64,000 nt of DNA from Candidatus Spongiihabitans sp. (GCF_965247905.1 NZ_OZ252047.1:2073304-2137303), one strand, 5' to 3'. Numbered from the stretch's first letter, positions 14,756-54,335 are shown. Numbers and translations: made by a program. Notes: generated by a model from the letters alone, not told the origin.

Positions 14756-14860
14756 GCTTTCTCGTTCAGTCGCGCCTTCGGCAATGATCAGTCCTGCCAA
14801 TTGTCATAACCCATGACCCGGGAGAATTTGATGGAGAATCGGATTAACGCTGGTTTTGGT

Positions 14861-14956
14861 TCAAGATACTTTAAGCGGTCGATTTCGGATAGATTTCAGC
14901 AGATATTGACACCCATTTTCGTGGCGCATATTGAAGCGAAACTCACACTCTTTCAA
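14861..14956 (-). pseudogene. C-terminal remnant of an IS1595-family (IS1016-like) transposase
   Basis: Translates LKECEFRFNMRHENGCQYLLKSIRNRPLKVS*, resembling the LKECE(F/W)RFN C-terminus of IS1016-type transposases; stop codon lies within the TIR. Family match is by recall, not by search. Confidence 0.75.
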
Positions 14957-15322
14957 AGGAGTCCGGCTACGCCGGACGACATATTTTAACTGGATTCCCG
15001 CCTGCGGCGAGAATGACGGGCTGGGGGGACAAGGGTGAATCGGAAGGCGATGATTTCTTTTGAGAAGACAATGGTAAATAAGTGTCACGCAAAGCGTGAC
15101 ACTAAAACGTGCTCTATTACCTATAATCCGTCATTGCCCGGCCCATATTATTATTATTGGCCGGGCAATCCAGTTATTAAACCGTTCGGCGTAGCCGAAC
15201 TCCTTTGCGGCGAAGCCGCGCTGTTTGTGTCTGGCAAAGCCGTATGCCAAAAAGAGTCACGCTACGCGTGACAGATATTTAACTGGATTCCCGCCTTCGG
15301 CGAGAATGACGAATAAGAGTCG

Positions 15323-15496
15323 TCATTGCCCGGCGATGTGTTGTCTGATTTGAGTATACAATCGGCTGGTCGCTGGACGAGAGATGCCAGTGATTCGAGC
15401 GACTTTGCAAGCCTCGATATCAAGGCAAAACAGCCGTGGAATCGCCCTGAATTTATTCTCCGAAATTCGGCAACGAATGACATGCTTGTTTTTCAT
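15323..15496 (-). pseudogene. N-terminal (HTH) remnant of the same transposase, 57 aa, below the ORF-track cutoff
   Basis: MKNKHVIRCRISENKFRAIPRLFCLDIEACKVARITGISRPATSRLYTQIRQHIAGQ*, resembling the RISE.KFR...RLF.LD..A...A..TG.SR N-terminus of IS1016-like transposases. Confidence 0.75.
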
Positions 15497-15525
15497 TTAT
15501 AGAACAATTAGTTATGACCATTTCA

Positions 15526-16182
15526 CTATACCTTAAAGTATCTTGAACCCTGGTTTTTAACGATGATGACGTGGAAGTGTCTGGGTCCGTGGGCGCCGTA
15601 AACGATGGTTTGTTCAATATCCGCGGTTTTCGAGGGGCCCGTGATAAAATTTATCGCGCGCGGCTGCGCTTTTATCACTTTCATCATGGGCCAGAACTGT
15701 TCCATAGTCGCTACCAATCGTGACTCCAGAAGCACCACAATATTAATTTCCGGCAGAAAATTAAGCGTAACTGGCGAGCGCGCGGACGACACCATGGCGA
15801 TGGTTCCGGTTTCGGCGATTCCCGCAAATGCCAGGGTAATCGAAGTGCGGTCGGATTTTCGAGCCGGTCTTGGTTCAACCACCAGGTCTGCCCAATCCAA
15901 CTGGGTCAACTTTGGGTCGGTTGCGATAGCGGCGCGTAATTTCGCACCTGCTTTTATCAGGTAGTGGGTCGCGGAATCAGGAACATCGCCCAAGTTTGCG
16001 AGAATTTCCCAGGTGCCATGCACCTGAACCAACATTTCGACAAATTGACCTGTTTTATTTGCTTCAATATCAAAGGGGTAATCCGGTTGTGGCAACGCAA
16101 TAGAAAAATCGGGCGCCGATTCAAAATCTGATGAATCGGTTGCCGCGCGAATTTTTGACAATATGGTTTCCCGGGCGCTCAT
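15526..16182 (-). CDS. lutC: Lactate utilization protein C (LutC/YkgG); C-terminus supplied by the MITE
   Basis: GIAETGT, LNFLPE..IVVL, INFITGPSKTADIEQTIVYGAHGP; last residues GSRYFKV are read from the TIR. Confidence 0.9.
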   Translation of the reverse strand: MSARETILSKIRAATDSSDFESAPDFSIALPQPDYPFDIEANKTGQFVEMLVQVHGTWEILANLGDVPDSATHYLIKAGAKLRAAIATDPKLTQLDWADLVVEPRPARKSDRTSITLAFAGIAETGTIAMVSSARSPVTLNFLPEINIVVLLESRLVATMEQFWPMMKVIKAQPRAINFITGPSKTADIEQTIVYGAHGPRHFHVIIVKNQGSRYFKV

Positions 16183-17618
16183 GTTTTATGGCGATGCCGG
16201 GCTTTCCGTAGTTGCTGAAAAGTGGATTGGGCCGGCGCCGGAAAATCCCGCGTCGCGGTCCACGGGCGTGCCAAGGGCAGCCATCGAAACCTTCCTCTGG
16301 CAGCCGTCGATTTAAGCGATTGTAGTCTTGTCAGGATGGCGATTAATATTCTCGTGATCTGGTTATACCGCTTGGGTCGGCTTGCCAATGAATACCAGCA
16401 CCACAGACCAAACTTCTGCGTCCGTGAAGGCGCGCCCATTTGCGCCAAATCCACTCGGTGCTGCCGCAATAATGACGGCAGCGGAATTTTTACCGGACAA
16501 ACCGTTTCGCAGCGCCCATTTAAAGTGCAGGCATTGGGCAAGTGCATTGCCTTTGTTTGCCCCACCAATAACGGCGTCAGCACCGCGCCCACGGGGCCCG
16601 GATAAACCCAGCCATAGGCATGACCACCGATGTTGGTGTAGACCGGGCAATGATTCAAACAGGCGCCGCAGCGGATGCAGCGAAGAATGTCCCGGTATTT
16701 GCCGTTGAGTATTTCGGCGCGACCATTGTCCAGCAACACCACATGAAATTGCTCAGGCCCGTCTAAATCATCTTCTCGTCTGGGGCCATTGAACAAGGTC
16801 GTGTACACGCTCATGCTTTGGCCGGTTGCGCTACGCCCAAGCAAGCGCAGGAATCCGCCCAGTGAAACCAGGTCGGGAATCACTTTTTCAATGCTGGCGA
16901 TAATGATATGCACGTTGGGCAAAGACGCGGTTAAATCACCATTGCCTTCGTTGGTGACGATGACGGCCGAGCCGGTGTCGGCCACTAAAAAGTTTGCCCC
17001 GGTGATGCCGACATCGGCGCTGCAAAAATGATCGCGCAGGATTTGCCGCGCCTGATTGACGATATCTTCGGGCTCGGTAACCTGTTCAAGATAGCCAAGT
17101 CCGGAATGGTGCGCATGAAACAAGTCGGTGACGTTTTGTTTCGACTTGTGCACCGCGGGGGCGATAATATGGCTGGGAGATTCCCCGGCCAACTGAATAA
17201 TATACTCGCCCAAGTCAGTTTCGATGACTTCGTAACCTTGGTCTTGCAACGACTGGTTGGTCACCGCTTCCTCCGAAACCATTGATTTTCCCTTGGTTAT
17301 CTTCCTGGCGTTGGCAGCGGCGCAAATATTTAGAATGATTCTATTCGCTTGTTCTCCGTTCCACGCCCAATGAACCTGACTGCCGTTTTTCGTTGCGTTA
17401 GTTTCAAATTGAGTCAGGTAATAATCCAAGTGTTTTAGCGTGTGATCTTTAACCTGCTGTCCGTAGGTGCGGTAATCCTCAAAGTTTCTTAACTCGGCAA
17501 CCGCTTTTTTTCGGGTATTTACAAATCCCCCCTCGGCCCGGTCAAGCGCGCAACGTAAATCATCATCAAGCAAAGCGGCTTTGGACGCCGAGTTAAAATT
17601 TTGTGATAAAACTTTCAC
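16179..17618 (-). CDS. lutB: Lactate utilization Fe-S protein B (LutB/YkgF)
   Basis: KGKSMVSEE, ETDLGEYIIQLAGE.PSHIIAPAVH, NEGNG, CIRCGACLNHCPVY, CTLNGRCETVCPVKIP. Confidence 0.95.
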   Translation of the reverse strand: MKVLSQNFNSASKAALLDDDLRCALDRAEGGFVNTRKKAVAELRNFEDYRTYGQQVKDHTLKHLDYYLTQFETNATKNGSQVHWAWNGEQANRIILNICAAANARKITKGKSMVSEEAVTNQSLQDQGYEVIETDLGEYIIQLAGESPSHIIAPAVHKSKQNVTDLFHAHHSGLGYLEQVTEPEDIVNQARQILRDHFCSADVGITGANFLVADTGSAVIVTNEGNGDLTASLPNVHIIIASIEKVIPDLVSLGGFLRLLGRSATGQSMSVYTTLFNGPRREDDLDGPEQFHVVLLDNGRAEILNGKYRDILRCIRCGACLNHCPVYTNIGGHAYGWVYPGPVGAVLTPLLVGQTKAMHLPNACTLNGRCETVCPVKIPLPSLLRQHRVDLAQMGAPSRTQKFGLWCWYSLASRPKRYNQITRILIAILTRLQSLKSTAARGRFRWLPLARPWTATRDFPAPAQSTFQQLRKARHRHKT

Positions 17619-18430
17619 TTGTTGATTTCCCGGCTTATTTCTTGCGCTTGACTTTGCGCGATGCCCGCTTCAGGCTCTTCATCCAGTAACCATTCAGCAA
17701 AATGAAAAACCTGAGTTGGTTTTCCGCATCGCGTTATGCGCCCGGCAATGTTCATTAAACAACCGAGGTCGCCTCCGAGCACAATATCCGCTTCAGTTTT
17801 ATCGATGCTGGAAATTTTATTATCGACCAGGCGGGTAGATATTTCGGGGTATTTGACGCAAAAAGCGCCGCCAAATCCGCAGCATATTTCAGAATTATCC
17901 ATCTCATCAATGCGTATCCCGGCACGCTGACTTAACAGTTTTCGCGGCTGAGAACGAATGCCCAACTCGCGCAATCCAGAGCAGGAATCGTGGTAAGTGA
18001 TTTTTTTATCATCGGCAAACCGCCGCGCTTGCGGCGGCGATTTCAGCGGCATGACCTCAACCAAAAACTGAGACAACTCATAGGTTTTGTCCGCCAACTT
18101 CCGCGCGCGGCCAAACCAATTCGGATGGTCGCTGAACAGTTTTGGATAATGCACTTTAACCATGGCCGCACAGGATCCAGACGGCGCGACGACGTAATCG
18201 AACGACTCAAATTGCTCAATCAGATTTTTTGCAAGCACCCGGGTTTTTGCATCATCGCCATTATTGTATGCGGGTTGGCCGCAACAACTCTGTTGCGGCA
18301 CTGAAACATGACAGCCACATTGCTCGATTAAGCGCGCCGCCGCAAATCCGACTTGCGGCCTGAATAAATCCGCCAAACAGGTGATGAATAAGCCTACATG
18401 GTGCGTGGAATTATTGTCGGAGCCGGCCAT
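17615..18430 (-). CDS. lutA: Lactate utilization protein A (LutA/YkgE, CCG domains)
   Basis: LFITCLAD, CCGQPAYNNG, PSGSCAAM, YHDSCSGLR, CCGFGGAF, DLGCLMNI. Confidence 0.95.
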   Translation of the reverse strand: MAGSDNNSTHHVGLFITCLADLFRPQVGFAAARLIEQCGCHVSVPQQSCCGQPAYNNGDDAKTRVLAKNLIEQFESFDYVVAPSGSCAAMVKVHYPKLFSDHPNWFGRARKLADKTYELSQFLVEVMPLKSPPQARRFADDKKITYHDSCSGLRELGIRSQPRKLLSQRAGIRIDEMDNSEICCGFGGAFCVKYPEISTRLVDNKISSIDKTEADIVLGGDLGCLMNIAGRITRCGKPTQVFHFAEWLLDEEPEAGIAQSQAQEISREINK

Positions 18431-18459
18431 GGATGATAGGCATGCCTATGTTATTGAGG

Positions 18460-19281
18460 TTATGTCGATCGATATTGATTAATCTGCCGGCAAATACTTT
18501 GCGCCTGATTGGCCGCGGCGGTCGAAAAATCCGCGCCCGCGCTTGCAAATATAACCTCTCGGGATACATTGATTATCAAGCCCTTTTTTTGTTCGGTTAA
18601 TCCATTTTTTAACGCGCCTTCCAGATCGCCGCCTTGCGCACCGACGCCGGGCACCAGCAGCGGCATGTCGCCGACGATTTGCCTGACTTCCTTAATCGCT
18701 TGCGGATAGGTTGCACCGACCACCAACGCGACATTGTTGTTTTTATTCCATTGCGATGCCGCCAGATGGGCAACATGTTGATAGACTGCCCGCTCGCCAC
18801 TGACCAATTGCTGAAAATCACCAGAGCCGGGATTGGAGGTCCGACACAGCACGATGACGCCGTGATTTTGAAAGCGCAGAAACGGTTCAAGCGCATCGCC
18901 GCCGAGATAGGGATTCACCGTCACCGCATCGGCCTGATAGCGTTCAAACGCTTCGATGGCATACATGCGCGCACTGGAGCCAATATCACCGCGCTTCGCA
19001 TCCAGAATCACCGGCATGGCGGGATATTCAGACTTGATATAGCGAATGGTTTTTTTTAACTGAAGTTCCGCACCGACTGCCGAGTAATAAGCCGCCTGAG
19101 GCTTGTAGGCGCAGGCCCATTGCGCGGTGGCATCAATGATTTCCCGGTTAAATCGATACAGCGGGTGCTTAGCGTTTTTAATGGATTTCGGCAGTCGGTC
19201 CAAGTCAGGATCAAGGCCAACGCAAAGCAGCGAATTTTGCTGCTTCCAGCTATCGGTTAATTTTTCGTAAAAGCCAGACAT
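18460..19281 (-). CDS. pyrF: Orotidine-5'-phosphate decarboxylase, subfamily 2 (ATG 19281 preferred; TTG 19308 possible)
   Basis: LCVGLDP, YKPQAAYY, VILDAKRGDIG, CRTSNPG, VVGATYP, LVPGVGAQGG. Confidence 0.93.
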   Translation of the reverse strand: MSGFYEKLTDSWKQQNSLLCVGLDPDLDRLPKSIKNAKHPLYRFNREIIDATAQWACAYKPQAAYYSAVGAELQLKKTIRYIKSEYPAMPVILDAKRGDIGSSARMYAIEAFERYQADAVTVNPYLGGDALEPFLRFQNHGVIVLCRTSNPGSGDFQQLVSGERAVYQHVAHLAASQWNKNNNVALVVGATYPQAIKEVRQIVGDMPLLVPGVGAQGGDLEGALKNGLTEQKKGLIINVSREVIFASAGADFSTAAANQAQSICRQINQYRST

Positions 19282-19381
19282 GCGCCTACCGGAAAATAAT
19301 CGTCCCAAAAAAAAATTATCTATGGCTGGTTATCATTCATTTAATTTGTCGCTAGTCTAACCGATGAACCATGACCTGCGG

Positions 19382-21907
19382 TTATTTTTCCTGTAGTTTT
19401 GGCAGCAAAATTTCCTGTCCGGTTTTCAAGCTTGAGAGTTTTAAAACCGGATTGAGTCGATATAGCAGCCACACCGGAAATTCAGACTGCCTGGACAGCA
19501 ACCAGATCGAGTCTCCGGATTGAACCGTATATCGATCGATTCCAGCGAGTGAATAATGCTCTTTTAATGCTTCACTCAGCACCTGATGATATTCGATGCG
19601 CTTGCGTTCAAAGGCGGTCACTTGATCTCCCGAAGTTACCGGCAGTTTCAGCACTCTGCCTAGGTGTAGCGTATGGCCGTATGATAGTTGGTTTAATTTT
19701 CTAATCGCCTTGGTCGAGCCCAGACCCAACCAGTCAGAATAGTGTCCCAGGGTTTCGTCGGCTTCAACCCGAATTCGGTAAACCGGATTCCCCGATGACC
19801 CGGTAATTGAAATACTGAGATCCGGCAACGTATCCAGTAAATTTGATAATGCGGGATACTTTACCGTCTGACTGGTGGTCACGTCATCAACTTGGCCGCC
19901 AGCTTGCCCTGTGGCCTTGGCGATTTCGAGGTCAACTTGCGCTAACTGTTGTGCGGTTTGCGTGGTGTCAGGCACCTCTAAGCCTGGGATTTTCAGTTTT
20001 TGGCCGGGGAAAATAACCGCTTTTTTATTCAAATTATTTAAGCGCCTGAGCGCGGCGCAATTCACCGAGAGGCGTGCGGCGATGAAACAGGCATAGTCGC
20101 CCTTGCGCACGATATACATGTTGTTTTCGTCCAGGCCCGCTATCTGACCGGATTGGGACATGGATCCCGGTATGGTCAGTTTTTGGCCGACATAAATGGT
20201 GGCTTTTCGACCTAGCTGATTCGCGCCAATCAATACACGGCAGCCGACATTAAATCGCCTGGCGATCTTGCACGCGGTATCTCCGCGTTTGACGCGATAA
20301 GTTTCATCGAATCGCAGTGGGATCGATTTGATAACCACCAACGTATCACTGCCTGTGCGCCCGGCCTGGGCGACTACAATTAACTTTCCAGGAATCGACA
20401 GTTTCTGCCCGATAAGAATAATCGCCCTTTTGCCAAGCCGATTAAGGTTGATTAACGCTCGGCAATTCACTTGCAACGCCCTGGCAATGCCGCAAGCGGT
20501 GTCGCCCTTGCGCACGATGTAATTGCCTGAGCCCGGCGCAACTGTTTCAGGCGCCATGGATTCCAGCCTTGCAATCGCGGTTTTATATTGGCTGCCATGA
20601 CCAGGCAATTTTAATTGGTAGCCTGCTGGAATCATGCGCCAGCCATTCCATACAAATCGGGTTAGTCCCAAATTCAGCGGTTTTAACTGGGCTTCCGTTA
20701 CTTTCAAAATTGATTTTATTCGCGCCAAAGAGGTTGGATGTTTTAGCACCAGGGTTTGATAATGAATTTGTTGGTCAAGATCAATGCCGCCAAAATATTT
20801 TTGCGCGTTTAAGGTAACATGCCGCGCCGCCAGAAAACTGGCGTAAAAGTTTTTTACCGCGACTTGAAATTTCGGCGATTTATAATTTTTCAGCACACTT
20901 AAATAGTCTGGTTTTATACGCGTGATCGCCCGGCGCATACCGCTTAAACCGTAGTTATAAGAGGTAATGACGAATGGATTTATTTCGTGGTGGGTGATAT
21001 TGGGATCAATGGATTTTGCCAGTTTGGTTAATGAGTTTCTGGATTTAACCAGATATCTGGCGGCCGCATGGGTGGACGCTTCCGGATCCAATCTTTCATC
21101 AATAGTCGCATTTAACTCCAGTCCCAGCGTTCGCGCCGTTCTCGGCATGATTTGCCACATGCCGGCCGCCCCGGCCTTGGAATACGCGGCCGGGTTATAG
21201 GAGGATTCCACAAAAGGCAAATAACGTATTTCCAACGGCAGTTGGTATTGCTTCAATACGGTGTCAACCAGATATCGGTAGCGATTAAACCGTTGCAAGC
21301 CCTCTAAAAAACTATCCTTGACGCCGCTTTGGCAGCGAATGTTTTCTGATGCAAATCGAATTTTTCTCGCTATCTTCTTGGCTGTCGTCTTGGACTTTGG
21401 AGTTTGGAATAAGTGCGCGAGATGAATTTGCTCGCTGGATTTTAGCTCGGCCGCCGATTCAATTTTCGCGGCGACATTGTACAAGGCGGTCTTCAGTCTC
21501 TTCCGCTCTTTGCTTAATTTTCTGGACACCCGGTCGCTGCAACCTGCACCGGTGTCAACCACCGAATACACCCGCTCTGAAATATTCGGGTCGTGAAAGA
21601 TCGCGACCTCCTTGCCCCAACTCTTGAAAACCTGTATCCAAAAATCGACTCTGCGGTGCAATTCTTTCGGGCATGGAAAGTTATCGCTACATTGCAATGG
21701 ATGCTGGGGAAGCAAATGATGTGCATGGGCTGCCTGCCCAAGCATAGACGTGGGCCCAAGCATAGACATGAACATGGGCATGGCCGCCACGGCGGCATAA
21801 CCGCCAATTGTGATTAAAACTAATCGAAAAAATTTCACAACTTGTCTTGGAAAAGACGACTTGAACGGGAAGCGGCTATTGTATTTGTCAAAATAGTTCT
21901 GTTTCAT
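19382..21907 (-). CDS. Lytic murein transglycosylase with multiple LysM domains (MltD-like)
   Basis: SLT domain LPFVESSYNP.A.S.AGAAGMWQIM, ERLDPE.ST.AAARYL, SYNYG; LysM repeats Y.V.KGD..C.IA; N-terminal hydrophobic segment. Confidence 0.88.
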   Translation of the reverse strand: MKQNYFDKYNSRFPFKSSFPRQVVKFFRLVLITIGGYAAVAAMPMFMSMLGPTSMLGQAAHAHHLLPQHPLQCSDNFPCPKELHRRVDFWIQVFKSWGKEVAIFHDPNISERVYSVVDTGAGCSDRVSRKLSKERKRLKTALYNVAAKIESAAELKSSEQIHLAHLFQTPKSKTTAKKIARKIRFASENIRCQSGVKDSFLEGLQRFNRYRYLVDTVLKQYQLPLEIRYLPFVESSYNPAAYSKAGAAGMWQIMPRTARTLGLELNATIDERLDPEASTHAAARYLVKSRNSLTKLAKSIDPNITHHEINPFVITSYNYGLSGMRRAITRIKPDYLSVLKNYKSPKFQVAVKNFYASFLAARHVTLNAQKYFGGIDLDQQIHYQTLVLKHPTSLARIKSILKVTEAQLKPLNLGLTRFVWNGWRMIPAGYQLKLPGHGSQYKTAIARLESMAPETVAPGSGNYIVRKGDTACGIARALQVNCRALINLNRLGKRAIILIGQKLSIPGKLIVVAQAGRTGSDTLVVIKSIPLRFDETYRVKRGDTACKIARRFNVGCRVLIGANQLGRKATIYVGQKLTIPGSMSQSGQIAGLDENNMYIVRKGDYACFIAARLSVNCAALRRLNNLNKKAVIFPGQKLKIPGLEVPDTTQTAQQLAQVDLEIAKATGQAGGQVDDVTTSQTVKYPALSNLLDTLPDLSISITGSSGNPVYRIRVEADETLGHYSDWLGLGSTKAIRKLNQLSYGHTLHLGRVLKLPVTSGDQVTAFERKRIEYHQVLSEALKEHYSLAGIDRYTVQSGDSIWLLSRQSEFPVWLLYRLNPVLKLSSLKTGQEILLPKLQEK

Positions 21908-22889: not shown

Positions 22890-22972
22890 TGTGGCGGCGC
22901 ATTGGATGCACTAATGGGCTCAGTGTGCCGATTTGGGCAAGCCGAAGCGCCGGTGGAATTCGGTTTTCCGGC

Positions 22973-24835: not shown

Positions 24836-24884
24836 ACTATGTATTCCAATTGTTATCGCTTGATTATTATGCAGCCGAGTCTCG

Positions 24885-28943: not shown

Positions 28944-29471
28944 ATGACTCAGTCCGAAAAATTGTTGCGGGATTGGCTGGCCAATTGTCTGGGCTGCGTC
29001 GCCGGTCGGCGAGAATTTCAACTCGATCGGTACATGGTGAAAGCGGTAAAAAACTGTCAAGATGTATTAAGCGCCTACGATGATTTTGTCGTTGCTCTGA
29101 AAGAAAAAGCGGCCGTCGCGTGTCTGTTTGTCCTCGACGACTTGCCCGGCATATATTCGTCTGACGGCACCAATGCGATTGTGCAAATCAATCAAATCGC
29201 CGAAATGATGGTGGTCTTGTCCGAAGCGCCGACCCGCGATTTGGTTAACGGTGGCAATTTGTTTGAAAAAAAAATTCTAGTTCGTGGCAACGCTTTGCGG
29301 TGCGAACGATTAACAATTACATTCAAATTACTAATTCCCAGCGGTGTCCGACTTTTCTTACCGACGACCATCGTCACTGGTACGCCAACCACCAAGCCCC
29401 CGCTTTTGCCGAGACCTGCAAAAATCTTTATCGGCATGATATGCCAATCATTTAGGTTCAAGATACTTTAA
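28944..29471 (+). CDS. Hypothetical protein; C-terminus rewritten by MITE copy 2
   Basis: 175-aa ORF divergent from the MFS pseudogene; no family recognised with confidence; last residues RFKIL* come from the TIR. Confidence 0.55.
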   Translation: MTQSEKLLRDWLANCLGCVAGRREFQLDRYMVKAVKNCQDVLSAYDDFVVALKEKAAVACLFVLDDLPGIYSSDGTNAIVQINQIAEMMVVLSEAPTRDLVNGGNLFEKKILVRGNALRCERLTITFKLLIPSGVRLFLPTTIVTGTPTTKPPLLPRPAKIFIGMICQSFRFKIL

Positions 29472-30062
29472 GGTATAGTGAAATGGTCATACCTAATTGT
29501 TCTATAAATGAAAAACAAGCATGTCATTCTCGCCGGCAGGCGGGAATCCAGAGTGGCGTAGCCGCCGAGACGCGTGCATACATTAGCGGTAAGCAACAAG
29601 CATCATCGCCTTGCCGTCATTCTCGCATCAAACGGCGCGGCTTCGCCGAAAATGAGTCCGGCTACGCCGGACGGCATATTCAACTGGATTGCCCGGCCAA
29701 TAATAATATGGGCCGGGCAATGACAAATGATAGGCAATGGTGAATTGAGAAGACAAAAGCGCGTTGAGACGCCAAAGCACACGAGAGAAAATGTCCAGCT
29801 ACGCCAGAGCACGTTTTAGTGTCACGCTTTGCGTGACAATTATTTACCATTGTCCTCTCAAAAGGAGTATTGCCTTCCGATTCACCATTGTCCCCCCAGC
29901 CCGTCATTCTCGCCGCAGGCGGGAATCCAGTTAAAATATGTCGTCCGGCGTAGCCGGACCCCTTTGAAAGAGTGTGAGTCTCGCTTCAATATGCGCCACG
30001 AAAATGGGTGTCAATATCTGCTAAAATCTATCCGAAATCGACCGCTTAAAGTATCTTGAACC
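29455..30062 (+). mobile_element. IS1595-derived MITE, copy 2, 608 bp, opposite orientation to copies 1 and 3
   Basis: Same 18-bp TIRs at 29455-29472 and 30045-30062; TSD ATCATTTA at 29447-29454 and 30063-30070; transposase remnants MKNKHVI (29508-29528) and LKECESRFN...KVS* (29964-30059). Confidence 0.93.
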
Positions 30063-30393
30063 ATCATTTATCTTCGGCATCTGATTCAATCGTGGATGAA
30101 CTATTACAAAAAGGGTGTCCTACCTAATCTGGACAAGATTACCGAACCGGGAACTTTTGATCAATGCCCCCGACAATGAGTGAAGACCAGCCACATCACT
30201 GCCATCGGCGACTTGTCGCAGAATATCTTCAGCGTACATGGGGGAACAGGGTTAGCGTGACGCATTTGGTTTAATAGCCTAGTGAAATGCCAGCAAGGTT
30301 GCGCGGGTATTTTTTCTATCTGTTTATTTTCTATATTGAGCATTTGTTCAATCGATTATAATCGCTCAATTATTGTTTCAATGAGAGTTCAAA

Positions 30394-45196: not shown

Positions 45197-47884
45197 ATGT
45201 CCAGTAACGAGACGCACACCGACACCGATGCGACCGAAACCAGTGAATGGCTTGATGCGCTTTCGTCGGTCATCGAAACACAGGGGCACGAACGCGCGCA
45301 TTTCTTGATTGAATCGCTTATTGATACGGCGCGTCGGTCTGGCGCCCATATCCCGTATCGAGCCAATACTGCTTATTTAAATACTATCCCGGTTCATCAG
45401 GAACAGCCCAGTCCTGGGGATCACGGCCTGGAAAGGCGAATTCGCGCGCTGATTCGCTGGAATGCGATGGCCATGGTGGTCAGAGCGAACCGCATCTCGT
45501 CCGAGTTGGGCGGACACATTGCCAGTTTTGCGTCTGCCGCCACTCTTTATGACGTTGGATTTAATCATTTCTGGCGGGCCAGCGTGTCTGGACAAGACGG
45601 TGCCGAACATTTGGGCGATATGCTGTTTATTCAGGGACATTCTGCGCCGGGAATTTATGCACGCGCCTATCTGGAACGACGGTTGAACAAAGAAGATCTG
45701 AGATTATTTCGCCAAGAAGTGGATGGCGCTGGTCTGTCCTCCTACCCCCACCCCTGGTTGATGCCGGACTTCTGGCAATTTCCCACGGTCTCTATGGGGC
45801 TCGGTCCGATTATGGCGATCTATCAGGCGCGTTATATGAAGTATTTGCATAATCGTGGATTGATTGACGCCAAGGATCGGAAGGTATGGGCATTTCTTGG
45901 TGATGGCGAAATGGATGAACCTGAATCCACCGGTGCGCTTGCGATTGCTGGCCGGGAAAACCTGGACAACCTGATTTTTGTAGTCAACTGCAACCTGCAA
46001 CGGCTGGATGGGCCGGTGCGCGGCAATGGAAAAATTATTCAGGAGTTGGAACGCGATTTCCGTGGTGCTGGCTGGAATGTGATCAAGGTAATTTGGGGAG
46101 GGTATTGGGACAAATTGTTACAGCGCGACGACAAAGGATTACTCAAGCAACGTATGGAGGAAGCGGTTGATGGCGAGTATCAAGCTTTTAAAGCCAATGA
46201 CGGTGCCTATGTGCGGGAAAAATTCTTTGGTGCCAACCCTGAATTAAAAGCAATGGTCGCCAATATGACCGACGACGATATTTGGCGGTTGAATCGGGGC
46301 GGACACGACCCGCATAAAATCTACGCCGCCTATCATGTCGCAACCCGGCATAGCGGTCAGCCAACAGTGATTCTGGCGAAAACCGTAAAAGGTTATGGCA
46401 TGGGTGAAGCCGGCGAGGGGCAGAACACCACGCACCAACAAAAGAAAATGGGGGAAGAATCCCTGCTGGCATTTCGCGATCGTTTTAATATTCCCTTGAC
46501 CGATGAAGAAGTCGCCAAAGCGCCGTTTTATCGCCCGGAAAAAGACTCGGCAGAGACCCAATACTTACTGGCTCATCGAGAAAAATTAGGCGGATTTCTA
46601 CCGGCACGCCGAAGTCTGAGCGCGCCAGCACTTAAATTGCCGGCGCTGTCAATTTTTAAATCTCAGTTGGAGGGCACCGGTGCTCGAGAAATTTCCACCA
46701 CCATGTCATTCGTGCGCATCCTCTCCGCTCTGGTGCGAAACAAGGAACTTAAAAATATTATTGTTCCAATCATCCCCGATGAATCACGCACCTTTGGCAT
46801 GGAGGGCATGTTTCGGCAATTGGGAATTTATTCTCCCAAAGGGCAGTTATATGAGCCGGTGGATTCCGAGCAGTTGATGTTTTACCGCGAAGATAAAAAT
46901 GGGCAAGTGCTGCAGGAGGGCATCAATGAAGCGGGCGCCATGTCATCGTGGATTGCGGCCGGCACGGCCTATAGCAATCATGATATATACACCATCCCGT
47001 TTTACATTCTCTATTCCATGTTCGGCTTTCAGCGTATCGGTGATTTATGTTGGGCCGCTGGCGATAGCAGAGCGCGCGGATTCATCATGGGCGGCACCGC
47101 CGGGCGAACCACGCTGGCGGGTGAAGGTCTGCAACACCAGGACGGGCATAGCTTAATCCTGGCGGCAACGGTGCCCAATTGTATTTCCTACGATCCGACT
47201 TATTGCTACGAGTTGGCAGTCATCATCCACGATGGTATGCGGCGCATGTATCAGCAGCAGGAAAGCGTTTATTACTACATTACCGTAATGAATGAAAACT
47301 ACACCCACCCTGAAATGCCAAAAAATGCTAATGAGGGCATTCTGCGCGGCATGTATTTACTCAAGCAGGTGGGTAAAAAGAAAAATAAAAACAAAGTGCA
47401 ATTGCTGGGCAGCGGCACCATATTAAGGGAGGTCGAAGCTGCCGCACAAATGCTGGATACAGAATTTAGCATTAGCGCGGACCTTTGGAGCGTGACCAGT
47501 TTCAATGAATTAACCCGTAACGGGCAGGATGTGGAGCGTTACAATCGGCTGCATCCCGATGAAAATCCGAAACAAAATTATGTGGAAATGTGCTTGGGAA
47601 ACACCGAAGGCCCGGTGATTGCCGCAACCGATTATATGCGATTGTATGCCGAGCAAATTCGCGCCTTCGTGCCGCGCCAGTATTATGTGCTGGGCACCGA
47701 CGGTTACGGCCGCAGCGACACCCGCCAGCAGTTGCGAAAATTCTTTGAGGTGGATCGTCATCATGTGACGGTGTGTGCATTGAAAGCGCTGGCCGACCAG
47801 GAAGCCGTAACCAATCAACAAGTTGAACAAGCCATCGCCAAGTATGGCATCGACCCGGAAAAACCCAACCCGGTAACGGTGTGA
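45197..47884 (+). CDS. aceE: Pyruvate dehydrogenase E1 (homodimeric)
   Basis: GGHIASFAS, YPHPWLMPDFWQFPTVSMGLGP, GDGEMDEPES, GRTTLAGEGLQHQDG, LGTDGYGRSD. Confidence 0.98.
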   Translation: MSSNETHTDTDATETSEWLDALSSVIETQGHERAHFLIESLIDTARRSGAHIPYRANTAYLNTIPVHQEQPSPGDHGLERRIRALIRWNAMAMVVRANRISSELGGHIASFASAATLYDVGFNHFWRASVSGQDGAEHLGDMLFIQGHSAPGIYARAYLERRLNKEDLRLFRQEVDGAGLSSYPHPWLMPDFWQFPTVSMGLGPIMAIYQARYMKYLHNRGLIDAKDRKVWAFLGDGEMDEPESTGALAIAGRENLDNLIFVVNCNLQRLDGPVRGNGKIIQELERDFRGAGWNVIKVIWGGYWDKLLQRDDKGLLKQRMEEAVDGEYQAFKANDGAYVREKFFGANPELKAMVANMTDDDIWRLNRGGHDPHKIYAAYHVATRHSGQPTVILAKTVKGYGMGEAGEGQNTTHQQKKMGEESLLAFRDRFNIPLTDEEVAKAPFYRPEKDSAETQYLLAHREKLGGFLPARRSLSAPALKLPALSIFKSQLEGTGAREISTTMSFVRILSALVRNKELKNIIVPIIPDESRTFGMEGMFRQLGIYSPKGQLYEPVDSEQLMFYREDKNGQVLQEGINEAGAMSSWIAAGTAYSNHDIYTIPFYILYSMFGFQRIGDLCWAAGDSRARGFIMGGTAGRTTLAGEGLQHQDGHSLILAATVPNCISYDPTYCYELAVIIHDGMRRMYQQQESVYYYITVMNENYTHPEMPKNANEGILRGMYLLKQVGKKKNKNKVQLLGSGTILREVEAAAQMLDTEFSISADLWSVTSFNELTRNGQDVERYNRLHPDENPKQNYVEMCLGNTEGPVIAATDYMRLYAEQIRAFVPRQYYVLGTDGYGRSDTRQQLRKFFEVDRHHVTVCALKALADQEAVTNQQVEQAIAKYGIDPEKPNPVTV

Positions 47885-47893
47885 TAAAAATCA

Positions 47894-49264
47894 ATGGCTG
47901 AAGTAAAGGTTCCAGATATTGGTGATTTCGATGCGGTTGAAATCATTGAAATTTTGGTGAATATTGGGGATACGGTTGCCGCAGAAGACCCGTTGCTGAC
48001 CCTGGAAAGCGACAAGGCGACCATGGACATTCCGGCGCCGGGCAAGGGTACCATCACCGCTATTAGTGTTGCCGTTGGCGATAGCGTATCCGAAGGCATG
48101 GTGATCATGCACATTGATACTGTCGGCGATACTGTCGGCGAAGTTGCTGACCCAGCACTTCAAAAGCAGGAAGCTCAAAAGCCAGCCGAAAAAGAAGTCC
48201 AAACAGCCGACATTAAACAACCCGCTAATGCGGTTGTGGAAACGCTGGTAACTCAAGTACATTCTCCGGCACACTCCCCGGCTTCCATCTCGCCCGCTGC
48301 AATGGAAAAATCCGACGGCGCACTTCATTCCAATCGGCTACATTCCAACCCGCCTCATGCCAGCCCGGGGGTACGCAGGTTTGCCAGAGAACTTGGTGCA
48401 GATTTAGGTCAAATCGGCGGTAGCGGGCCGAAAGCGCGCATCCTTAAACAGGATGTCATCGCCTGGGTTAAATCATGCGTCAAACAAAAACTCTCATCGC
48501 CAACCCCCGCCAGTGAAACCACCGGCGCTGGAATCCCGCCCATACCTGAAGTCGATTTCTCCCAGTTTGGAGAAATTGAAACCATTAAGTTATCCCGGAT
48601 TAAAAAATTATCCGGTCCCCACCTGCAACGCGCTTGGTTAAATATTCCGCATGTTACGCATCATGATGAAGCCGATATTACCGAACTCGAGCAGTTTAGA
48701 AAGTCGTTAAAAAACGAAGCGGAAAAAGACGGCATACGAATCACATTGCTGTCATTCGTAATGAAAGCAATGGTTGGCGCGCTAAAAAAATATCCGAATG
48801 TCAATGCATCCCTTGCGGTCAACGGCGAGGAACTAATATTAAAAAAATATTACAACATCGGCATAGCGGTGGACACACCCAATGGACTTGTAGTCCCGGT
48901 AGTCCAGGATGTCGATCGAAAAAGTGTTTTTGATTTGGCGCGAGAGATGGCCGACATTAGCCAACGATCGCGCGCCGGGAAACTAAAACCTGATGACCTT
49001 AAAGGCGGATGCATCAGTATTTCCAGTTTGGGCGGCATTGGCGGAAGCGCTTTTACACCTATCGTCAACGCGCCGGAAGTCGCTATCCTCGGCGTCTCAA
49101 GGGCGAAGATGATGCCGCTGTGGAATGGAGAATCATTCGACCCCCGACTAATCTTGCCGCTGGATTTATCTTACGATCATCGCGTCATTGATGGGGCGGA
49201 AGCGGCCAGATTTGTCGCCTATCTCACTCAATCTTTTGGGGATGTCCGCAGACTATCTCTGTAA
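47894..49264 (+). CDS. aceF: Dihydrolipoamide acetyltransferase E2 with one lipoyl domain
   Basis: LESDKAT lipoyl site, HASPGVRRFARELG, catalytic SYDHRVIDGA. Confidence 0.97.
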   Translation: MAEVKVPDIGDFDAVEIIEILVNIGDTVAAEDPLLTLESDKATMDIPAPGKGTITAISVAVGDSVSEGMVIMHIDTVGDTVGEVADPALQKQEAQKPAEKEVQTADIKQPANAVVETLVTQVHSPAHSPASISPAAMEKSDGALHSNRLHSNPPHASPGVRRFARELGADLGQIGGSGPKARILKQDVIAWVKSCVKQKLSSPTPASETTGAGIPPIPEVDFSQFGEIETIKLSRIKKLSGPHLQRAWLNIPHVTHHDEADITELEQFRKSLKNEAEKDGIRITLLSFVMKAMVGALKKYPNVNASLAVNGEELILKKYYNIGIAVDTPNGLVVPVVQDVDRKSVFDLAREMADISQRSRAGKLKPDDLKGGCISISSLGGIGGSAFTPIVNAPEVAILGVSRAKMMPLWNGESFDPRLILPLDLSYDHRVIDGAEAARFVAYLTQSFGDVRRLSL

Positions 49265-49311
49265 GCCCTGTCTCTATAAGATAAGTGCCAATTTGTTAGC
49301 AGCCCTTATTT

Positions 49312-51054
49312 ATGACCAATCTGATTGAAATTAAAACTCCTGATTTGGGCGAGTTTGAAAACGTCCCCATCATCGAAATTTTTGTACAAGTTGGTGATGT
49401 CATAGCGACAGACGACCCTCTGGTCGCCATAGAAAGCGATAAAGCCACAATGGAAATCCCCGCCAGCCATAGCGGTGTCATTAAGGAAATGAAAATTGCG
49501 GTCGGCGATGCAATTTCCTCCGGTCAAGTCTTGCTCGTGGTCGAGTCGCGCGGCACCAGCGTGACGAAAAAAGTCGCGGATGAAATCGCCGATGAAGTCG
49601 CCGTGACGAAAGAAGTCGCACCCAAAACCGCGAAAGGGAATGGCGATAAGCATGCCGCGTTGGTGGTATTGGGCTCGGGACCAGGTGGCTACACCGCCGC
49701 ATTCCGCGCCGCGGATTTGGGGCTTGATGTTATCTTGATCGAGCGCCATGAAAATCTCGGCGGGGTTTGTCTCAACGTGGGCTGCATCCCGTCCAAAGCG
49801 CTGTTGCATGTCGCAAAAGTGGTCACCGATGCCGCCGATGCCAAAGCCATTGGACTTGACTTTGCACCGCCCACGGTGGACCTCAAGCAAACGCTTAAAT
49901 GGAAAAACGGCATTGTCAATCAGTTGACGCAAGGGCTGGCGGGTTTGGCCAAAAAACGCAAAGTCACGGTGATTCATGGCTTGGGGCAATTCATAAGTCC
50001 AAACAGGATTGAAGTCGCTTCCAACTCGGGCGCTGAAACCGTCTCCTTTGAACAGGCCATTATCGCGGCCGGCTCGCAACCGATTGAAATACCGGGCTTC
50101 CCCCATGCTGATCCAAGGTTGCTGGATTCAACCAGCGCATTGGCGCTGGACGACATCCCTGAAAGGCTGCTGATTGTCGGCGGCGGCATCATTGGCCTGG
50201 AAATGGCGACCGTATATCATGCGCTGGGCAGCAAAATCAGCGTCGTGGAAATGCTGGCTGGACTGATGGCCGGCGCCGATGCGGACTTGGTGCGGCCGTT
50301 GCAAAAACGCATCAAGCACCAGTACGAAAACATTTGGCTAAAGACCAAAGTCACGCAGATGAAAGCGCTGAAAAATGGCATCAAAGTCAGTTTTGAAGGC
50401 GACCAAGCGCCGGAGAATGAAACCTTTGGCAAGGTGCTGGTGTCGGTTGGCAGAACGCCCAATGGCAATAGAATAAATGCACAAGCGGCCGGTGTCAGCG
50501 TTTCAGAGCATGGATTTATCGCGGTTAATGATCAACAACAAACCAATATTCCGCATATCTTTGCCATTGGCGATATAGTGGGTCAGCCCATGCTAGCGCA
50601 CAAAGCGGTGCATGAGGGCAAGGTCGCTGCCGAAGTCGCGGCCGGACTGAACAGCGGGTTTGATGCCAGAGTGATTCCGAGCGTGGCTTATACCGATCCA
50701 GAGGTAGCATGGGTTGGTGTCACCGAAGCCGAAGCCAAAGCGCAAGGTCTGGACTATGGCAAAGGCGTTTTCCCCTGGGCCGCCAGCGGTCGATCTCTGT
50801 CTCAAGGCCGTCGCGACGGCGTGACCAAACTTCTTTTTGACAACCATACCCATAGAATCATTGGCGCCGGAATTACCGGCAGCAATGCTGGGGAACTTAT
50901 CGCCGAAGCCACGCTCGCCATTGAGATGAATGCGGATGCTGCGGATATTGGATTGTCGATACACGCCCACCCTACCCTGGCCGAAACTTTGGGCTTGGCT
51001 GCGGAAGCGTTTGAAGGCACGATTACTGATTTGTATCTGCCGAAGAAAAAATAA
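49312..51054 (+). CDS. lpdA: Dihydrolipoamide dehydrogenase with an N-terminal lipoyl domain
   Basis: IESDKAT lipoyl site, GSGPGGY, GGVCLNVGCIPSKAL, GGGIIGLE, HAHPTLAE. Confidence 0.97.
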   Translation: MTNLIEIKTPDLGEFENVPIIEIFVQVGDVIATDDPLVAIESDKATMEIPASHSGVIKEMKIAVGDAISSGQVLLVVESRGTSVTKKVADEIADEVAVTKEVAPKTAKGNGDKHAALVVLGSGPGGYTAAFRAADLGLDVILIERHENLGGVCLNVGCIPSKALLHVAKVVTDAADAKAIGLDFAPPTVDLKQTLKWKNGIVNQLTQGLAGLAKKRKVTVIHGLGQFISPNRIEVASNSGAETVSFEQAIIAAGSQPIEIPGFPHADPRLLDSTSALALDDIPERLLIVGGGIIGLEMATVYHALGSKISVVEMLAGLMAGADADLVRPLQKRIKHQYENIWLKTKVTQMKALKNGIKVSFEGDQAPENETFGKVLVSVGRTPNGNRINAQAAGVSVSEHGFIAVNDQQQTNIPHIFAIGDIVGQPMLAHKAVHEGKVAAEVAAGLNSGFDARVIPSVAYTDPEVAWVGVTEAEAKAQGLDYGKGVFPWAASGRSLSQGRRDGVTKLLFDNHTHRIIGAGITGSNAGELIAEATLAIEMNADAADIGLSIHAHPTLAETLGLAAEAFEGTITDLYLPKKK

Positions 51055-51057
51055 TTT

Positions 51058-51069
51058 GGGTCATGACCC
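51058..51069. promoter_or_regulatory. 12-bp perfect palindrome between lpdA and the MMPL gene (candidate operator or hairpin)
   Basis: GGGTCATGACCC, flanked by aaataa and ttattt. Confidence 0.3.
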
Positions 51070-51092
51070 TTATTTATTTCAGGTAATTTTCA

Positions 51093-53435
51093 ATGGAGCA
51101 ATTCGCAATCAAGTGGGGAAGTTGGGTCACCCGTAATCGAATCCTGACGCTGGCGCTTTCTTTGATGCTCGCCATGGCGGCCGCTTCCGGCGTTCAGTTT
51201 CTGGGATTCACCAATGATTATCGCGTGTTTTTTTCTGGTGATGATCCGCATTTGCTGGCCTTTGAAAACCTGCAAAGCACCTATACAAAAAACGATAATG
51301 TTTTATTTGTTATCGCGCCTGATGATGGCAAGGTGTTCACCCGCGATACGCTGGCGGCGATTTCGCAGTTGACCGATCGCGCTTGGCAGACGCCGTTTTC
51401 GATCAGGGTGGATTCGCTGTCAAACTATCAGCACACCGAGGCGCAAGGCGATGACCTGATAGTGGCCGATTTGTATGAAGACGCCGACTCCCTGAGCGCT
51501 GCCGACCTGGCGCACATTCGCGCCATCGCGGTCAACGAGCCTTTCCTGGTGCATCGCCTGATCTCCGCGGATGCTCATGTTGCCGCCATTAATATTACGG
51601 TCGAGACCCCAGGAATTGATGAAGCCACCGAAGGCCCCCAGGTTGTTGAGCATGTTCGGGCGATGCGAAGTTATGCCGAGCAAGCCTATCCAAACCTGAA
51701 CATTTACCTGACCGGCATCATGATGATGAACCAGGCCTTTCCGGAAGCCTCGTTATACGACATGACCCATCTGGTGCCGGCCGCTTTCGCCCTCATCCTG
51801 TTTCTTGTATTCCTGCAGTTAAGGGGATTTAGCGGCACGCTGGCGACCTTCATCACCATCGCGCTTTCCATCGTCTCGGCAATGGGCATGGCCGGCTGGA
51901 TGGGCATTAAACTGACCCCGCCGTCGATGTCCGCACCCACAATTATTCTGACCTTGGCGGTCGCGGACTGTGTGCATGTCCTGGCCAACTGGCTGCAGAA
52001 ATACCGCGGCGGGATGGACAAGATCACGTCCATGGCGGAAAGCCTGAGAATCAATTTCAGCCCGGTCTTGCTGACCTCGGTGACCACCGCCATCGGCTTC
52101 CTGTCCCTGAATTTTAGTGATGCCCCGCCGTTCGGCGACCTCGGCAACATCGCCGCAATGGGCGTTTTGTTTGCCTGGTTCTACGCTATGACGCTATTGC
52201 CTGCTCTGGTTACGTTACTGCCTGCAAGTACCAGGAAGGGCCGGGCTTACGGCGGTGAAATAATGAACACGTTTTCAGGCTGGGTGATTCGCCGGCGCGC
52301 TATGCTGATGCCAGTGGTCAGTTTAGTGATTGTTGGCTTGGTATTGTGGATTCCAAAAAACCAGTTAAATGATATTTTCGTCAACTACTTCGATGAGCGC
52401 ATCGAGTTTCGCACCGACACCGATTTCGTTGTGGACAATCTGACTGGCATGTATTTCATCGATTATTCACTGAATGCCGGGCAGTCCGGCGCAATTTCTG
52501 AACCGCGCTACCTGCAACAGGTGCAACAATTCACCGACTGGCTGCGGCGGCAGCCCGAGGTCATTCATGTCAATACCGTGACCGATGTGTTCAAGCGCAT
52601 CAACAAAAGTATGCATGGCGATGATCCATTCTGGTACGCGTTGCCGGAACAACGCGAAATGGCGGCGCAGTATCTGCTGCTGTACGAACTGTCCCTGCCC
52701 TATGGCTTGGACTTGAACAATCAAATCGATATCGATAAACAACGCACACGGCTGAGCGCCACGCTTAAAACCTTGTCCACAACGAATACCCTGGCTTTCG
52801 AGCAGCGGGTAAGTCTTTGGCTGCAGCAGAACACGCCGGAAATTCACACCATCGGCGCCAGCCCAACCATCATGTTTTCCCATATCGGCATGCGCAACAT
52901 TATCAGTATGTTAGGCGGCACCGCGTTCGCGCTGGTGGCAATATCGTTGTTGCTGATGCTGGCGTTCGGCTCGGTGCGGTATGGCTTGCTGACCTTGCTG
53001 CCCAATATCGCCCCGGCGGCGATGGCGTTCGGACTGTGGGGCATCGTGGACGCCGAAATAGGTTTGGGTTTGTCGGTTGTTACGGCAATGACGCTCGGCA
53101 TCGTGGTCGACGACACCATCCACTTCATGAGCAAATACTTGCGCGCGCGCCGCGACCAAGGTCTGGATGCAATCGAAGCGGTTGGTTACGCATTTTCGAC
53201 CGTGGGCATTCCGTTATGGATTACCTCGGTGGCATTGGCCGCCGGCTTTTTGGTGTTAGCAACTTCTTCGTTTACGTTGAATGCGGAGATGGGCTTGTTG
53301 GTCGCTATCGTGATCATGTTCGCCCTGATCGTTGATTTCCTGTTGCTGCCGACCTTGCTGATTCGATTCGATCGATGGTTGATTGGCGCAACGCGGAAAA
53401 ATTCAGAAATCGAGGCCACCGCCCAGTCGGCATAA
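51093..53435 (+). CDS. MMPL/RND-family exporter
   Basis: Two repeats of TM + periplasmic + 5 TM; LAVADCVH, LLTSVTTAIGFLSL, GIVVDDTIHF. Confidence 0.9.
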   Translation: MEQFAIKWGSWVTRNRILTLALSLMLAMAAASGVQFLGFTNDYRVFFSGDDPHLLAFENLQSTYTKNDNVLFVIAPDDGKVFTRDTLAAISQLTDRAWQTPFSIRVDSLSNYQHTEAQGDDLIVADLYEDADSLSAADLAHIRAIAVNEPFLVHRLISADAHVAAINITVETPGIDEATEGPQVVEHVRAMRSYAEQAYPNLNIYLTGIMMMNQAFPEASLYDMTHLVPAAFALILFLVFLQLRGFSGTLATFITIALSIVSAMGMAGWMGIKLTPPSMSAPTIILTLAVADCVHVLANWLQKYRGGMDKITSMAESLRINFSPVLLTSVTTAIGFLSLNFSDAPPFGDLGNIAAMGVLFAWFYAMTLLPALVTLLPASTRKGRAYGGEIMNTFSGWVIRRRAMLMPVVSLVIVGLVLWIPKNQLNDIFVNYFDERIEFRTDTDFVVDNLTGMYFIDYSLNAGQSGAISEPRYLQQVQQFTDWLRRQPEVIHVNTVTDVFKRINKSMHGDDPFWYALPEQREMAAQYLLLYELSLPYGLDLNNQIDIDKQRTRLSATLKTLSTTNTLAFEQRVSLWLQQNTPEIHTIGASPTIMFSHIGMRNIISMLGGTAFALVAISLLLMLAFGSVRYGLLTLLPNIAPAAMAFGLWGIVDAEIGLGLSVVTAMTLGIVVDDTIHFMSKYLRARRDQGLDAIEAVGYAFSTVGIPLWITSVALAAGFLVLATSSFTLNAEMGLLVAIVIMFALIVDFLLLPTLLIRFDRWLIGATRKNSEIEATAQSA

Positions 53436-53440
53436 ATTAA

Positions 53441-54335
53441 GGTTCAAGATACTTTAAGCGGTCGATTTCGGATAGATTTTAGCAGATATTGACACCTGTT
53501 TTCGTGGCGCATATTGAAGCGAAACTCACACTCTTTCAAAGGAGTCCGGCTACGCCGGACGACATATTTTAACTGGATTCCCGCCTGCGGCGAGAATGAC
53601 GGGCTGGGGGGACAATGGTGAATCGGAAGGCAATGAGTCCTTTTGAGAGGACAATGGTAAATAATTGTCACGCAAAGCGTGACACAACCGGCGGCTACGC
53701 CACTCTGGATTCCCGCCTGCCGGCGAGAATGACAAATGAGGGTCGTCATTGCCCGGCCCATATTATTATTGGCCGGGCAATCCAGTGGAATATGCCGTCC
53801 GGCGTAGCCGGACTCATTTGCGGCGTAGCCGCCGGTTTGTGTCTGGCAAAGCCGGATGCCAATAAAGAGTCACGCTACGCGTGACAGATATTTAACTGGA
53901 TTTGCGCGTATCATCCCTGATACGCGCCCTTCGGGCTCGCTTCGCTCGCGAAAAATCGCTCCCAGCGGTTTTTTCCGCCTTCGGCGAGAATGACGGCAGG
54001 GAGGGCGATTCTTTCCGCCTGCCGGCGAGAATGACGGCCGAGAGGGCGGCGCTAAAACACCGCCGGAAAGGAACAAAACGGGCAATGAATTAGTGAACAC
54101 ATACGCTCGCATTGCCCGGCGATGTGTTGTCTGATTTGAGTATACAATCGGCTGGTCGCCGGGCCAGAGATGCCGGTGTTTTGTGCGACTTTGCAAGCCT
54201 CGATATCAAGGCAAAACAGCCGTGGAATCGCCCTGAATTTATTCTCCGAAATTCGGCAGCGAATGACATGCTTGTTTTTAATTTATAGAACAATTCGTTA
54301 TGACCATTTCACTATACCTTAAAGTATCTTGAACC
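53441..54335 (-). mobile_element. IS1595-derived MITE, copy 3, 895 bp
   Basis: Same 18-bp TIRs at 53441-53458 and 54318-54335; TSD TAAATTAA at 53433-53440 and 54336-54343; transposase C-remnant 53444-53539; N-remnant about 54100-54282 with ATG changed to ATT. Confidence 0.93.

Follow-up and report, generated by a model that had tools for sequence, protein, structure and literature searches.

We have analysed a 64,000-nt stretch (the window) of Candidatus Spongiihabitans sp. (NZ_OZ252047.1:2073304-2137303), part of a 3.03-Mb single-contig genome with 51% G+C (49% A+T). Three elements in it consist of the two ends of an insertion sequence (IS) enclosing an interior of repetitive extragenic palindromic (REP) hairpins, and are very probably members of one family of non-autonomous derivatives of the IS1016 subgroup (IS1595 family) that goes back to one founder. 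The IS-derived ends with what they enclose are called shells here (Copies 1 to 3 in the window), and the enclosed REP array is their cargo. The shell is a carrier of REP repeats in this genome, not the only one.

Transposition and a common founder

The 18-mer GGTTCAAGATACTTTAAG occurs six times in exact form in the window, as three inverted pairs (14858/15549, 29455/30062 and 53441/54335), against 0.03 matches in shuffled sequence. Each of the three elements has these perfect 18-bp terminal inverted repeats (TIRs) and is bordered by its own perfect 8-bp duplication, CTGGTTTT, ATCATTTA and TAAATTAA respectively, so that the ends, coordinates and duplications proposed in an initial annotation of this DNA were exact. 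That annotation had also taken each element for a separate transposition, and the congeners bear this out. Once the flanks are joined, they align unbroken to the genomes G004 and/or G002 (85-97% identity), with the 8-mer present exactly once at each empty site. The empty site of Copy 1 has a single CTGGTTTT in G002 and CGGGTTTT in G004, that of Copy 2 was found in G004, and those of Copy 3 in both G004 and G002. Duplications and empty sites together establish that the window copies arrived by transposition. The insertion of Copy 1 falls within the final sense codon of lutC, Copy 2 is close to where a 175-aa open frame ends, and Copy 3 lies between a stop codon and the ribosome-binding site of the following gene. 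At 15526-15557 the native C-terminus of lutC (...IIVKNQR*, as at the empty site) becomes ...IIVKNQGSRYFKV*, the TIR supplying the final residues and the stop.

The window copies belong to a much larger set. Genome-wide there are 65 TIR pairs (complete copies) of 368-1686 bp, with a median of about 800 bp, plus about 23 solo ends; the "three-copy" family of the annotation was thus an undercount, and its expectation of a large genome-wide family was right. Perfect 8-bp duplications border 50 of the 65 copies and are 93% A+T, vs 49% for the genome. None of the 65 encodes a transposase, and parent nt 193-605 are missing from all of them. A BLAST search of the genome with a decayed copy of the parent IS (described below) showed the outer parts in high numbers, nt 1-195 about 65 times and nt 610-703 about 83 times, and the middle (~200-605) a single time. 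The 3' breakpoint is parent nt 606 in every shell (608 in four), and the 5' breakpoint is nt 192 in 44 of the 63 copies with a 5' end found, the other shells having shorter 5' ends that break at nt 36, 78, 95-97, 128, 171, 182 or 189. Directly inside the 5' junction about 43 of 50 copies have one common sequence, and inside the 3' junction about 55 of 65 do; the founder-specific junctions are REP/TTTGAAAGAGTGTGAG and GCCGGGCAATGCGAGCGTATGTG. No REP-free copy was found among the 65 in this genome. From the shared breakpoints (nt 192 and 606) and the shared junction sequences it follows that these copies form one family with a single founder, in which the REP cargo was already present before multiplication, and the shared junctions also mean that the cargo moved together with the shell.

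The source of the ends was expected to be an IS1595-family element of IS1016 type, and this proved correct. A search of the genome with the Pfam profile DDE_Tnp_IS1595 gave 16 loci above cut-off. The decayed parent copy lies at genome 516190-516892, with a perfect TIR at one end, ca. 40 bp lost at the 5' end and two in-frame stops; with the stops read through, it scores 149 bits with NF033547 (cut-off 75) and 81 bits with PF12762 (cut-off 27), and the shell ends are about 90% identical to it in DNA. It carries the signature DExYFG..YTD..HINGIENF..KECEFRF, which has been described for the IS1016 subgroup/ISApl4 (PMC12561309). The transposase remnants predicted at both shell ends are present in Copy 1, as MKNKHVIRCRISENKFRAIPRLFCLD... 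(57 aa) and ...PLKECEFRFNMRHENGCQYLLKSIRNRPLKVS; its short open reading frames (ORFs) translate to MKNKHVIRCRISENKFRAIPRLFCLDIEACKVARITGISRPATSRLYTQIRQHIAGQ and ...PLKECEFRFNMRHENGCQYLLKSIRNRPLKVS. On their own, the remnant peptides gave no family match in NCBIfam/Pfam profile searches.

The exact TIR was searched among 60 related genomes and found in three besides this one (G004, G002 and G034). The congener G004 has a single, intact IS of 730 bp with identical 18-bp ends, a 224-aa transposase and the duplication TTAAAATA, in other words the parent with the same TIRs that the annotation had called for. G002, also of the same genus, has one IS copy divided between two contigs. G034, of another genus in the same family, has about 9 IS copies of 728-740 bp, the best with 97% protein identity to the decayed copy. 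The length of the parent (730 bp in G004, 738-740 bp in G034), its perfect 18-bp TIRs and its AT-rich 8-bp duplications agree with the IS1016 subgroup, whose members are ~700-750 bp long and have short TIRs and AT-rich duplications of 7-9 bp. The annotation had named three outcomes that would speak against its reading, namely no IS1595 match, no parent and no empty site; we looked at all three and found the match, the parent and the empty sites.

REP cargo of the shells

The interior of the shells is mostly REP hairpins, in keeping with the initial description. The hairpins gtccggc-tac-gccggac, gtcacgc-aaa-gcgtgac and gtcacgc-tac-gcgtgac and the GTCATT...AATCCAG units are all found in the window, and folded as single-stranded DNA they are better than shuffles (z -2.5 to -6.3). 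The units that make up the interior follow one another in tandem as "c <B (d) A>", where A stands for CGTCATTCTCGCC-loop-GGCGGGAATCCAG and B for CGTCATTGCCCGGCC-AT-rich loop-GGCCGGGCAATCCAG; these two stand head to head, and c and d are small tri-loop hairpins interleaved with them. None of the nine canonical A/B units in the 64-kb window falls outside the three shells, whose parts are as follows (strand in brackets, parent positions in nt).

14858..15549 (-): Copy 1, a non-autonomous shell of IS1016 type, 692 bp; what is left of the transposase is on the minus strand; TIRs 14858-14875 and 15532-15549
14850..14857 (left) and 15550-15557 (right): target-site duplication CTGGTTTT of Copy 1, a direct repeat, single-copy in the empty site
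14858..14955 (-): 3' IS-derived end of Copy 1, parent nt 606-703; last ~31 codons, ...LKECEFRFN...PLKVS
14956..15323: REP cargo of Copy 1, hairpins and A/B units
First half of this cargo: c 14961-14977; A 14990-15018 (-); d 15084-15100; B 15129-15173 (+)
Second half of this cargo: g/c hairpin 15184-15200; e hairpin 15256-15272; A 15283-15311 (-)
15324..15549 (-): 5' IS-derived end of Copy 1, parent nt 2-189; TIR, leader and first 57 codons MKNKHVIRCRISENKFR...
29455..30062 (+): Copy 2, 608-bp shell, its 5' part trimmed to parent nt 36
29447..29454 (left) and 30063-30070 (right): target-site duplication ATCATTTA of Copy 2, a direct repeat
29528..29964: REP cargo of Copy 2; the leading A unit (+), 29523-29551, overlaps the final bases of the 5' IS-derived end
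Later parts of this cargo: c 29656-29672; B 29684-29724 (-); d 29821-29837; A 29902-29930 (+); c 29943-29959
29965..30062 (+): 3' IS-derived end of Copy 2, parent nt 606-703, TIR at 30045-30062
53441..54335 (-): Copy 3, 895-bp shell, its transposase remnant likewise minus-strand; TIRs 53441-53458 and 54318-54335
53433..53440 (left) and 54336-54343 (right): target-site duplication TAAATTAA of Copy 3; the left copy takes in the stop codon of a 780-aa ORF upstream
53539..54106: REP cargo of Copy 3; c 53544-53560; A 53573-53601 (-); d 53667-53683; A 53705-53733 (-)
Later parts of this cargo: B 53744-53785 (+); c 53797-53813; e 53869-53885
~53893-53996: further A-type unit of Copy 3, interrupted by a ~71-bp nested mini-repeat
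54107..54335 (-): 5' IS-derived end of Copy 3, parent nt 4-192

The first A unit of Copy 2 begins at GTCATTC inside the transposase start (ATGAAAAACAAGCATGTCATTC). The interruption in Copy 3 (~53899-53974) follows CTGGATT in the A-type REP and is a ~71-bp insert, TGCGCGTATCATCCCTGATACGCGC...AAAAATCGCTCCC..GGTTTTT. This mini-repeat has ca. 44 copies genome-wide, often within REP hairpins, and some of them form tandem arrays with a period of 72 bp (e.g., genome 293232-293450).

Counted over the whole genome there are 530 A/B units, and their sequences are its commonest 12-mers. The CGTC head (preceding C) is present on 422 of them (80%). Unit A differs from the Neisseria NTS consensus CGTCATTCCCGCGMAVGCGGGAATCYRG at two stem positions and fits the Ssn-related motif (SRM) pattern HGTCWYN(0-2)YYVSBRHN(0-5)WNVSBRGN(0-2)RNCYNB, which has 189 matches in the genome and was published together with the NTS-ssnA-NTS arrangement (PMC11893778); unit B, with a longer stem and an AT-rich loop, falls outside the pattern. 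A Neisseria identity for the genome was considered and rejected, there being no dialect of the DNA uptake sequence and the commonest 12-mers being the REPs themselves.

Complete shells hold 248 of the 530 units (47%) while covering 1.7% of the genome, and partial shells another 63 (12%), which brings the share to 59%. The remaining 219 (41%) lie in 82 shell-free clusters, and these free arrays hold the long modules also present in shells, so that cargo and free arrays are made of the same material. The 5' interior module, at first counted 39 times inside shells vs 4 times outside (<=2 mismatches), was tried as a marker of shell origin and dropped, as more diverged versions begin two free arrays. 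No replication-strand bias was found for shells or REP units.

Within the family, the terminal "A> c" module of the shell arrays is almost invariant, and several arrangements are each found in 3-5 copies (5 in the case of "A> c <B c d A> c"). There are 134 pairs of copies at separate loci that are colinear over >=95% of their length, with up to 98.3% identity. Close pairs differ by insertion or deletion of whole or half REP units; in one case a 34-bp insert is exactly one A unit.

Related genomes and other transposase and nuclease genes

Two similarities between this genome and G034 point to exchange across genera. The best G034 copy of the IS and the decayed parent share a TAA nonsense codon, which suggests that an already defective IS lineage was exchanged between the two. 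The in-frame TAA is at genome 516563; the G034 copy at G034:C1:276712-277392 (L116) has a single stop, presumably the same, after ...LPIIR, and another G034 copy reads CAA at this codon. In addition, a G034 locus (G034:C3:~783764-784307) contains 545 bp of cargo and 3' IS end that are 94-96% identical to several copies here (94.7% for the cargo and 3' end of Copy 2). This is far higher than expected for non-coding DNA of two genera and implies that the loaded element, or relatives of it, has been horizontally transferred between them. A 155-bp REP-free mini-derivative is also found in G034 (L137:173-327, i.e., G034:C3:939572-939726), with a TIR, ca. 65 bp of the 5' end and ca. [quoted passage not shown]

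The type-A 13-mer GGCGGGAATCCAG has 213 exact matches in this genome, 103 in G034 and only 2-3 in G002 and G004, the nearest congeners, from which the loaded shell is absent. The repeat and shell expansions therefore coincide in this lineage. Scans of metagenomes gave no match for the REP-IS junction and three for the TIR, these without further homology.

The initial annotation had presented REP spread as independent of the REP-associated tyrosine transposases (RAYTs). The independence itself agrees with our results: the five Y1_Tnp loci, with 4-5 genes, score 69-70 bits against a cut-off of 80 for the RAYT profile NF047646, none of them has REP hairpins in its flanks, and RAYT was accordingly discarded as mover of the REP units. 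The tag is also CGTC instead of the GTAG of RAYT-REP (REPIN) systems. What does not hold is the surprise. For CGTC-tagged REPs, Di Nocera et al. (2013; PMC3733652) report neither a dedicated transposase nor a RAYT and consider that mobility may be provided "by a broad spectrum of transposases"; CGTC-type repeats have also been linked to Ssn nucleases (PMC11893778). A RAYT was never the expected mover of such repeats, and since they had already been described without one, its absence is less unexpected than it had been framed. One RAYT-like Y1 transposase ORF (221 aa, genome 2143467-2144129), ca. 6.2 kb past the window end and without flanking palindromes, has near-identical paralogues at genome 14736-15440 and 24218-24928.

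A different gene is flanked by the repeats. A 98-aa GIY-YIG ORF, putatively Ssn-like (genome 472110-472403), has the surroundings B> B> <A, gene, <B <B <B, with inverted B units to its left and right in the manner of NTS-ssnA-NTS (PMC11893778). A search for a relative of this protein with a solved structure found none, only spurious WD40 matches. Two GIY-YIG paralogues (genome 1312828-1313184 and 154710-155018) are without such repeat flanks.

The genome also has three more intact IS1016-group families with distinct TIRs, GGGGCTGTCCTAGATAACTAA, GGGTCATGACAACTTAAGC and GGGGCTGGCACCTAACA (loci including 2577563-2578254, 1861738-1862491 and 2246916-2247626), and a 316-aa IS1595-type element in four copies. 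One of these other IS1595/IS1016-type ISs has landed beside one of the shell family's solo ends, at genome 2577292. About 20 homopolymeric C/G tracts of 12-28 nt occur genome-wide (e.g., 1072527, 1401850 and 582436), and may be phase-variable or artefacts of long-read assembly.

Origin of the family and comparison with known systems

We picture the founder as a parent IS in which nt 193-605 (~codons 60-200, the whole DDE core) were replaced by a short array of host CGTC-tagged REP hairpins, with both 18-bp TIRs retained. As both TIRs were kept, an IS1016-type transposase could act on it in trans, and a full-length DDE transposase of this type would have cut and pasted (or copied) the founder into AT-rich 8-bp targets to give at least 65 copies. 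The arrays within the copies would then have grown and shrunk by whole REP units, probably via unequal recombination or slippage between units, and a few copies may have lost more of their 5' end by recombination at native REP-like motifs of the IS (GTCATTC and GCCGGGCAATG), which lie at the breakpoints. We infer both the mobilisation in trans, by a cognate transposase that in this genome has since decayed or been lost, and a recombinational cause for the array variation.

Several observations weigh against this account. An intact cognate transposase is absent from this genome, the nearest intact resident transposase of IS1016 type being only 48-49% identical, with a TIR (GGGTCATGACAACTTAAGC) that matches at 13 of 18 positions. 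Sequencing runs containing the organism revealed no insertion polymorphism; contigs end at the TIRs without an empty-site joint, which is uninformative on present activity. For these two reasons current mobility is unproven, and the "still mobilisable" shell of the annotation went too far. Cargo architecture and the divergence of the IS ends show no relation (p=0.44 by permutation), and label changes on a tree of the IS-derived ends equal those of shuffles, so that inheritance of the architecture with the shell, for which neither test gave a signal, was given up. Either array rearrangement outpaces the divergence of the ends, or sequence is exchanged between copies; there must be frequent rearrangement or conversion between copies, or else the ends are too low in signal. 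Lastly, the 219 of 530 units outside shells have to be accounted for, and one shell-free array (genome ~2222520-2222875) is a ca. 350-bp insertion relative to the congener G002 with no IS ends, which means that the repeats also colonise sites without a shell. Together these make the shell one vehicle and not the sole one. The idea of an IS shell as REP vehicle thus holds historically (a loaded founder, at least 65 insertions, 59% of the units now in shells) and fails as the only route.

The same free arrays, with their 82 clusters and the insertion devoid of IS ends, are what one would expect if the REPs had spread by a mechanism of their own, possibly linked to Ssn or recombination, and the shell had caught just one array, its own multiplication adding little of a specific kind and "vehicle" then being an overstatement. 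It would fit too that G034 has 103 exact matches of the 13-mer and only about 9 IS copies, and that the putative Ssn-like GIY-YIG gene is repeat-flanked in the published manner. We nevertheless consider this improbable, because 59% of the A/B units are in complete or partial shells when complete shells are a mere 1.7% of the genome, and because G002 and G004, with their 2-3 matches, have no shell, both expansions coinciding here. A little less probable still is that the IS first spread as an empty deletion derivative and that each copy was later invaded independently by REP units, drawn by its interior or its REP-like motifs. Such a history would account for the gain or loss of single units between close copies, for GTCATTC and GCCGGGCAATG at the breakpoints, for architectures uncorrelated with end divergence and for the REP-free mini-derivative of G034. 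Against it, there is no REP-free copy among the 65, and independent invasions would give differing junctions, where in fact most copies by far agree in both REP-IS junctions; the terminal "A> c" module, too, is nearly constant. That the copies stem from segmental duplication, or from REP arrays with IS fragments at their flanks recombining with one another, without transposition, we regard as next to impossible: the 15 of 65 copies without a perfect duplication are in its favour, but it is contradicted by 50 different perfect 8-bp duplications with unrelated flanks and by base-exact empty sites, and for the three window copies it is refuted.

The preferred reading therefore remains a loaded founder multiplied by transposition. 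We would add a bolder suggestion, speculative and on balance doubtful, that hitch-hiking in IS1016 shells is a principal means for arrays of Ssn-related CGTC REPs to multiply and pass between genera, a DDE transposase in trans supplying the mobility and some of the "free" arrays being shells that have lost their ends. CGTC-tagged REPs (Neisseria dRS3/NTS, the SRMs of many symbionts) are abundant and have no known means of spread. This genome offers a concrete and countable case, in which one REP capture between IS1016 ends was transposed to at least 65 sites, and makes the question of REP spread experimentally approachable, even if the shell model leaves the shell-free arrays unexplained. For annotators it carries a caution, as clusters of REPs can be the cargo of a DDE element.

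Classical MITEs measure 70-300 bp, and mobile insertion cassettes (MICs) are IS ends around non-transposase DNA with a gene as passenger. The window elements are a MITE or MIC with REP cargo; the cargo is unusual, and they are not a new class of element. Like bacterial MITEs and MICs they have IS-derived TIRs, duplications, no transposase and many copies, they are presumably mobilised in trans, and they insert at gene ends and in intergenic spacers. Unlike classical MITEs (usually under ~300 bp) the shells are large, at 368-1686 bp, and as copies equal or exceed the parent IS in length, a cassette-like description fits them better. Where a MIC carries a gene, the shells carry a variable tandem array belonging to a different repeat family. 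In the literature searched we found no description of an IS-bounded cassette (MIC or MITE) with REP cargo.

With the IS1016 subgroup (IS1016, ISApl4; PMC12561309) the parent shares its size (730-740 bp vs 712 bp for ISApl4), a single DDE transposase of ca. 220 aa, the signature motif, short perfect TIRs and AT-rich 8-bp duplications, whereas the window elements lack the transposase, with the first ~57 and last ~31 codons left and foreign repeat DNA as interior. REPIN/RAYT systems (PMC3116915, PMC2817692) are similar in their inverted REP doublets, high copy number and intergenic position, and differ in having GTAG in place of CGTC; here, moreover, the shell-borne units were dispersed by a DDE-type element with 8-bp duplications. 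The closest likeness is to the CGTC REPs, Neisseria dRS3-NTS and SRMs (PMC3733652, PMC11893778), with the same CGTC head, oriented hairpins and head-to-head units, and in which likewise no RAYT gene is flanked by the repeats and a small GIY-YIG gene, here putatively Ssn-like, is. As in the Neisseria NIMEs, units are clustered in mosaics with other small repeats. The differences are that the host here is without the Neisseria DNA uptake sequence, that unit B is off the SRM pattern and, above all, that more than half of the units are enclosed by IS1016 shells, a situation undescribed for NTS/SRM.

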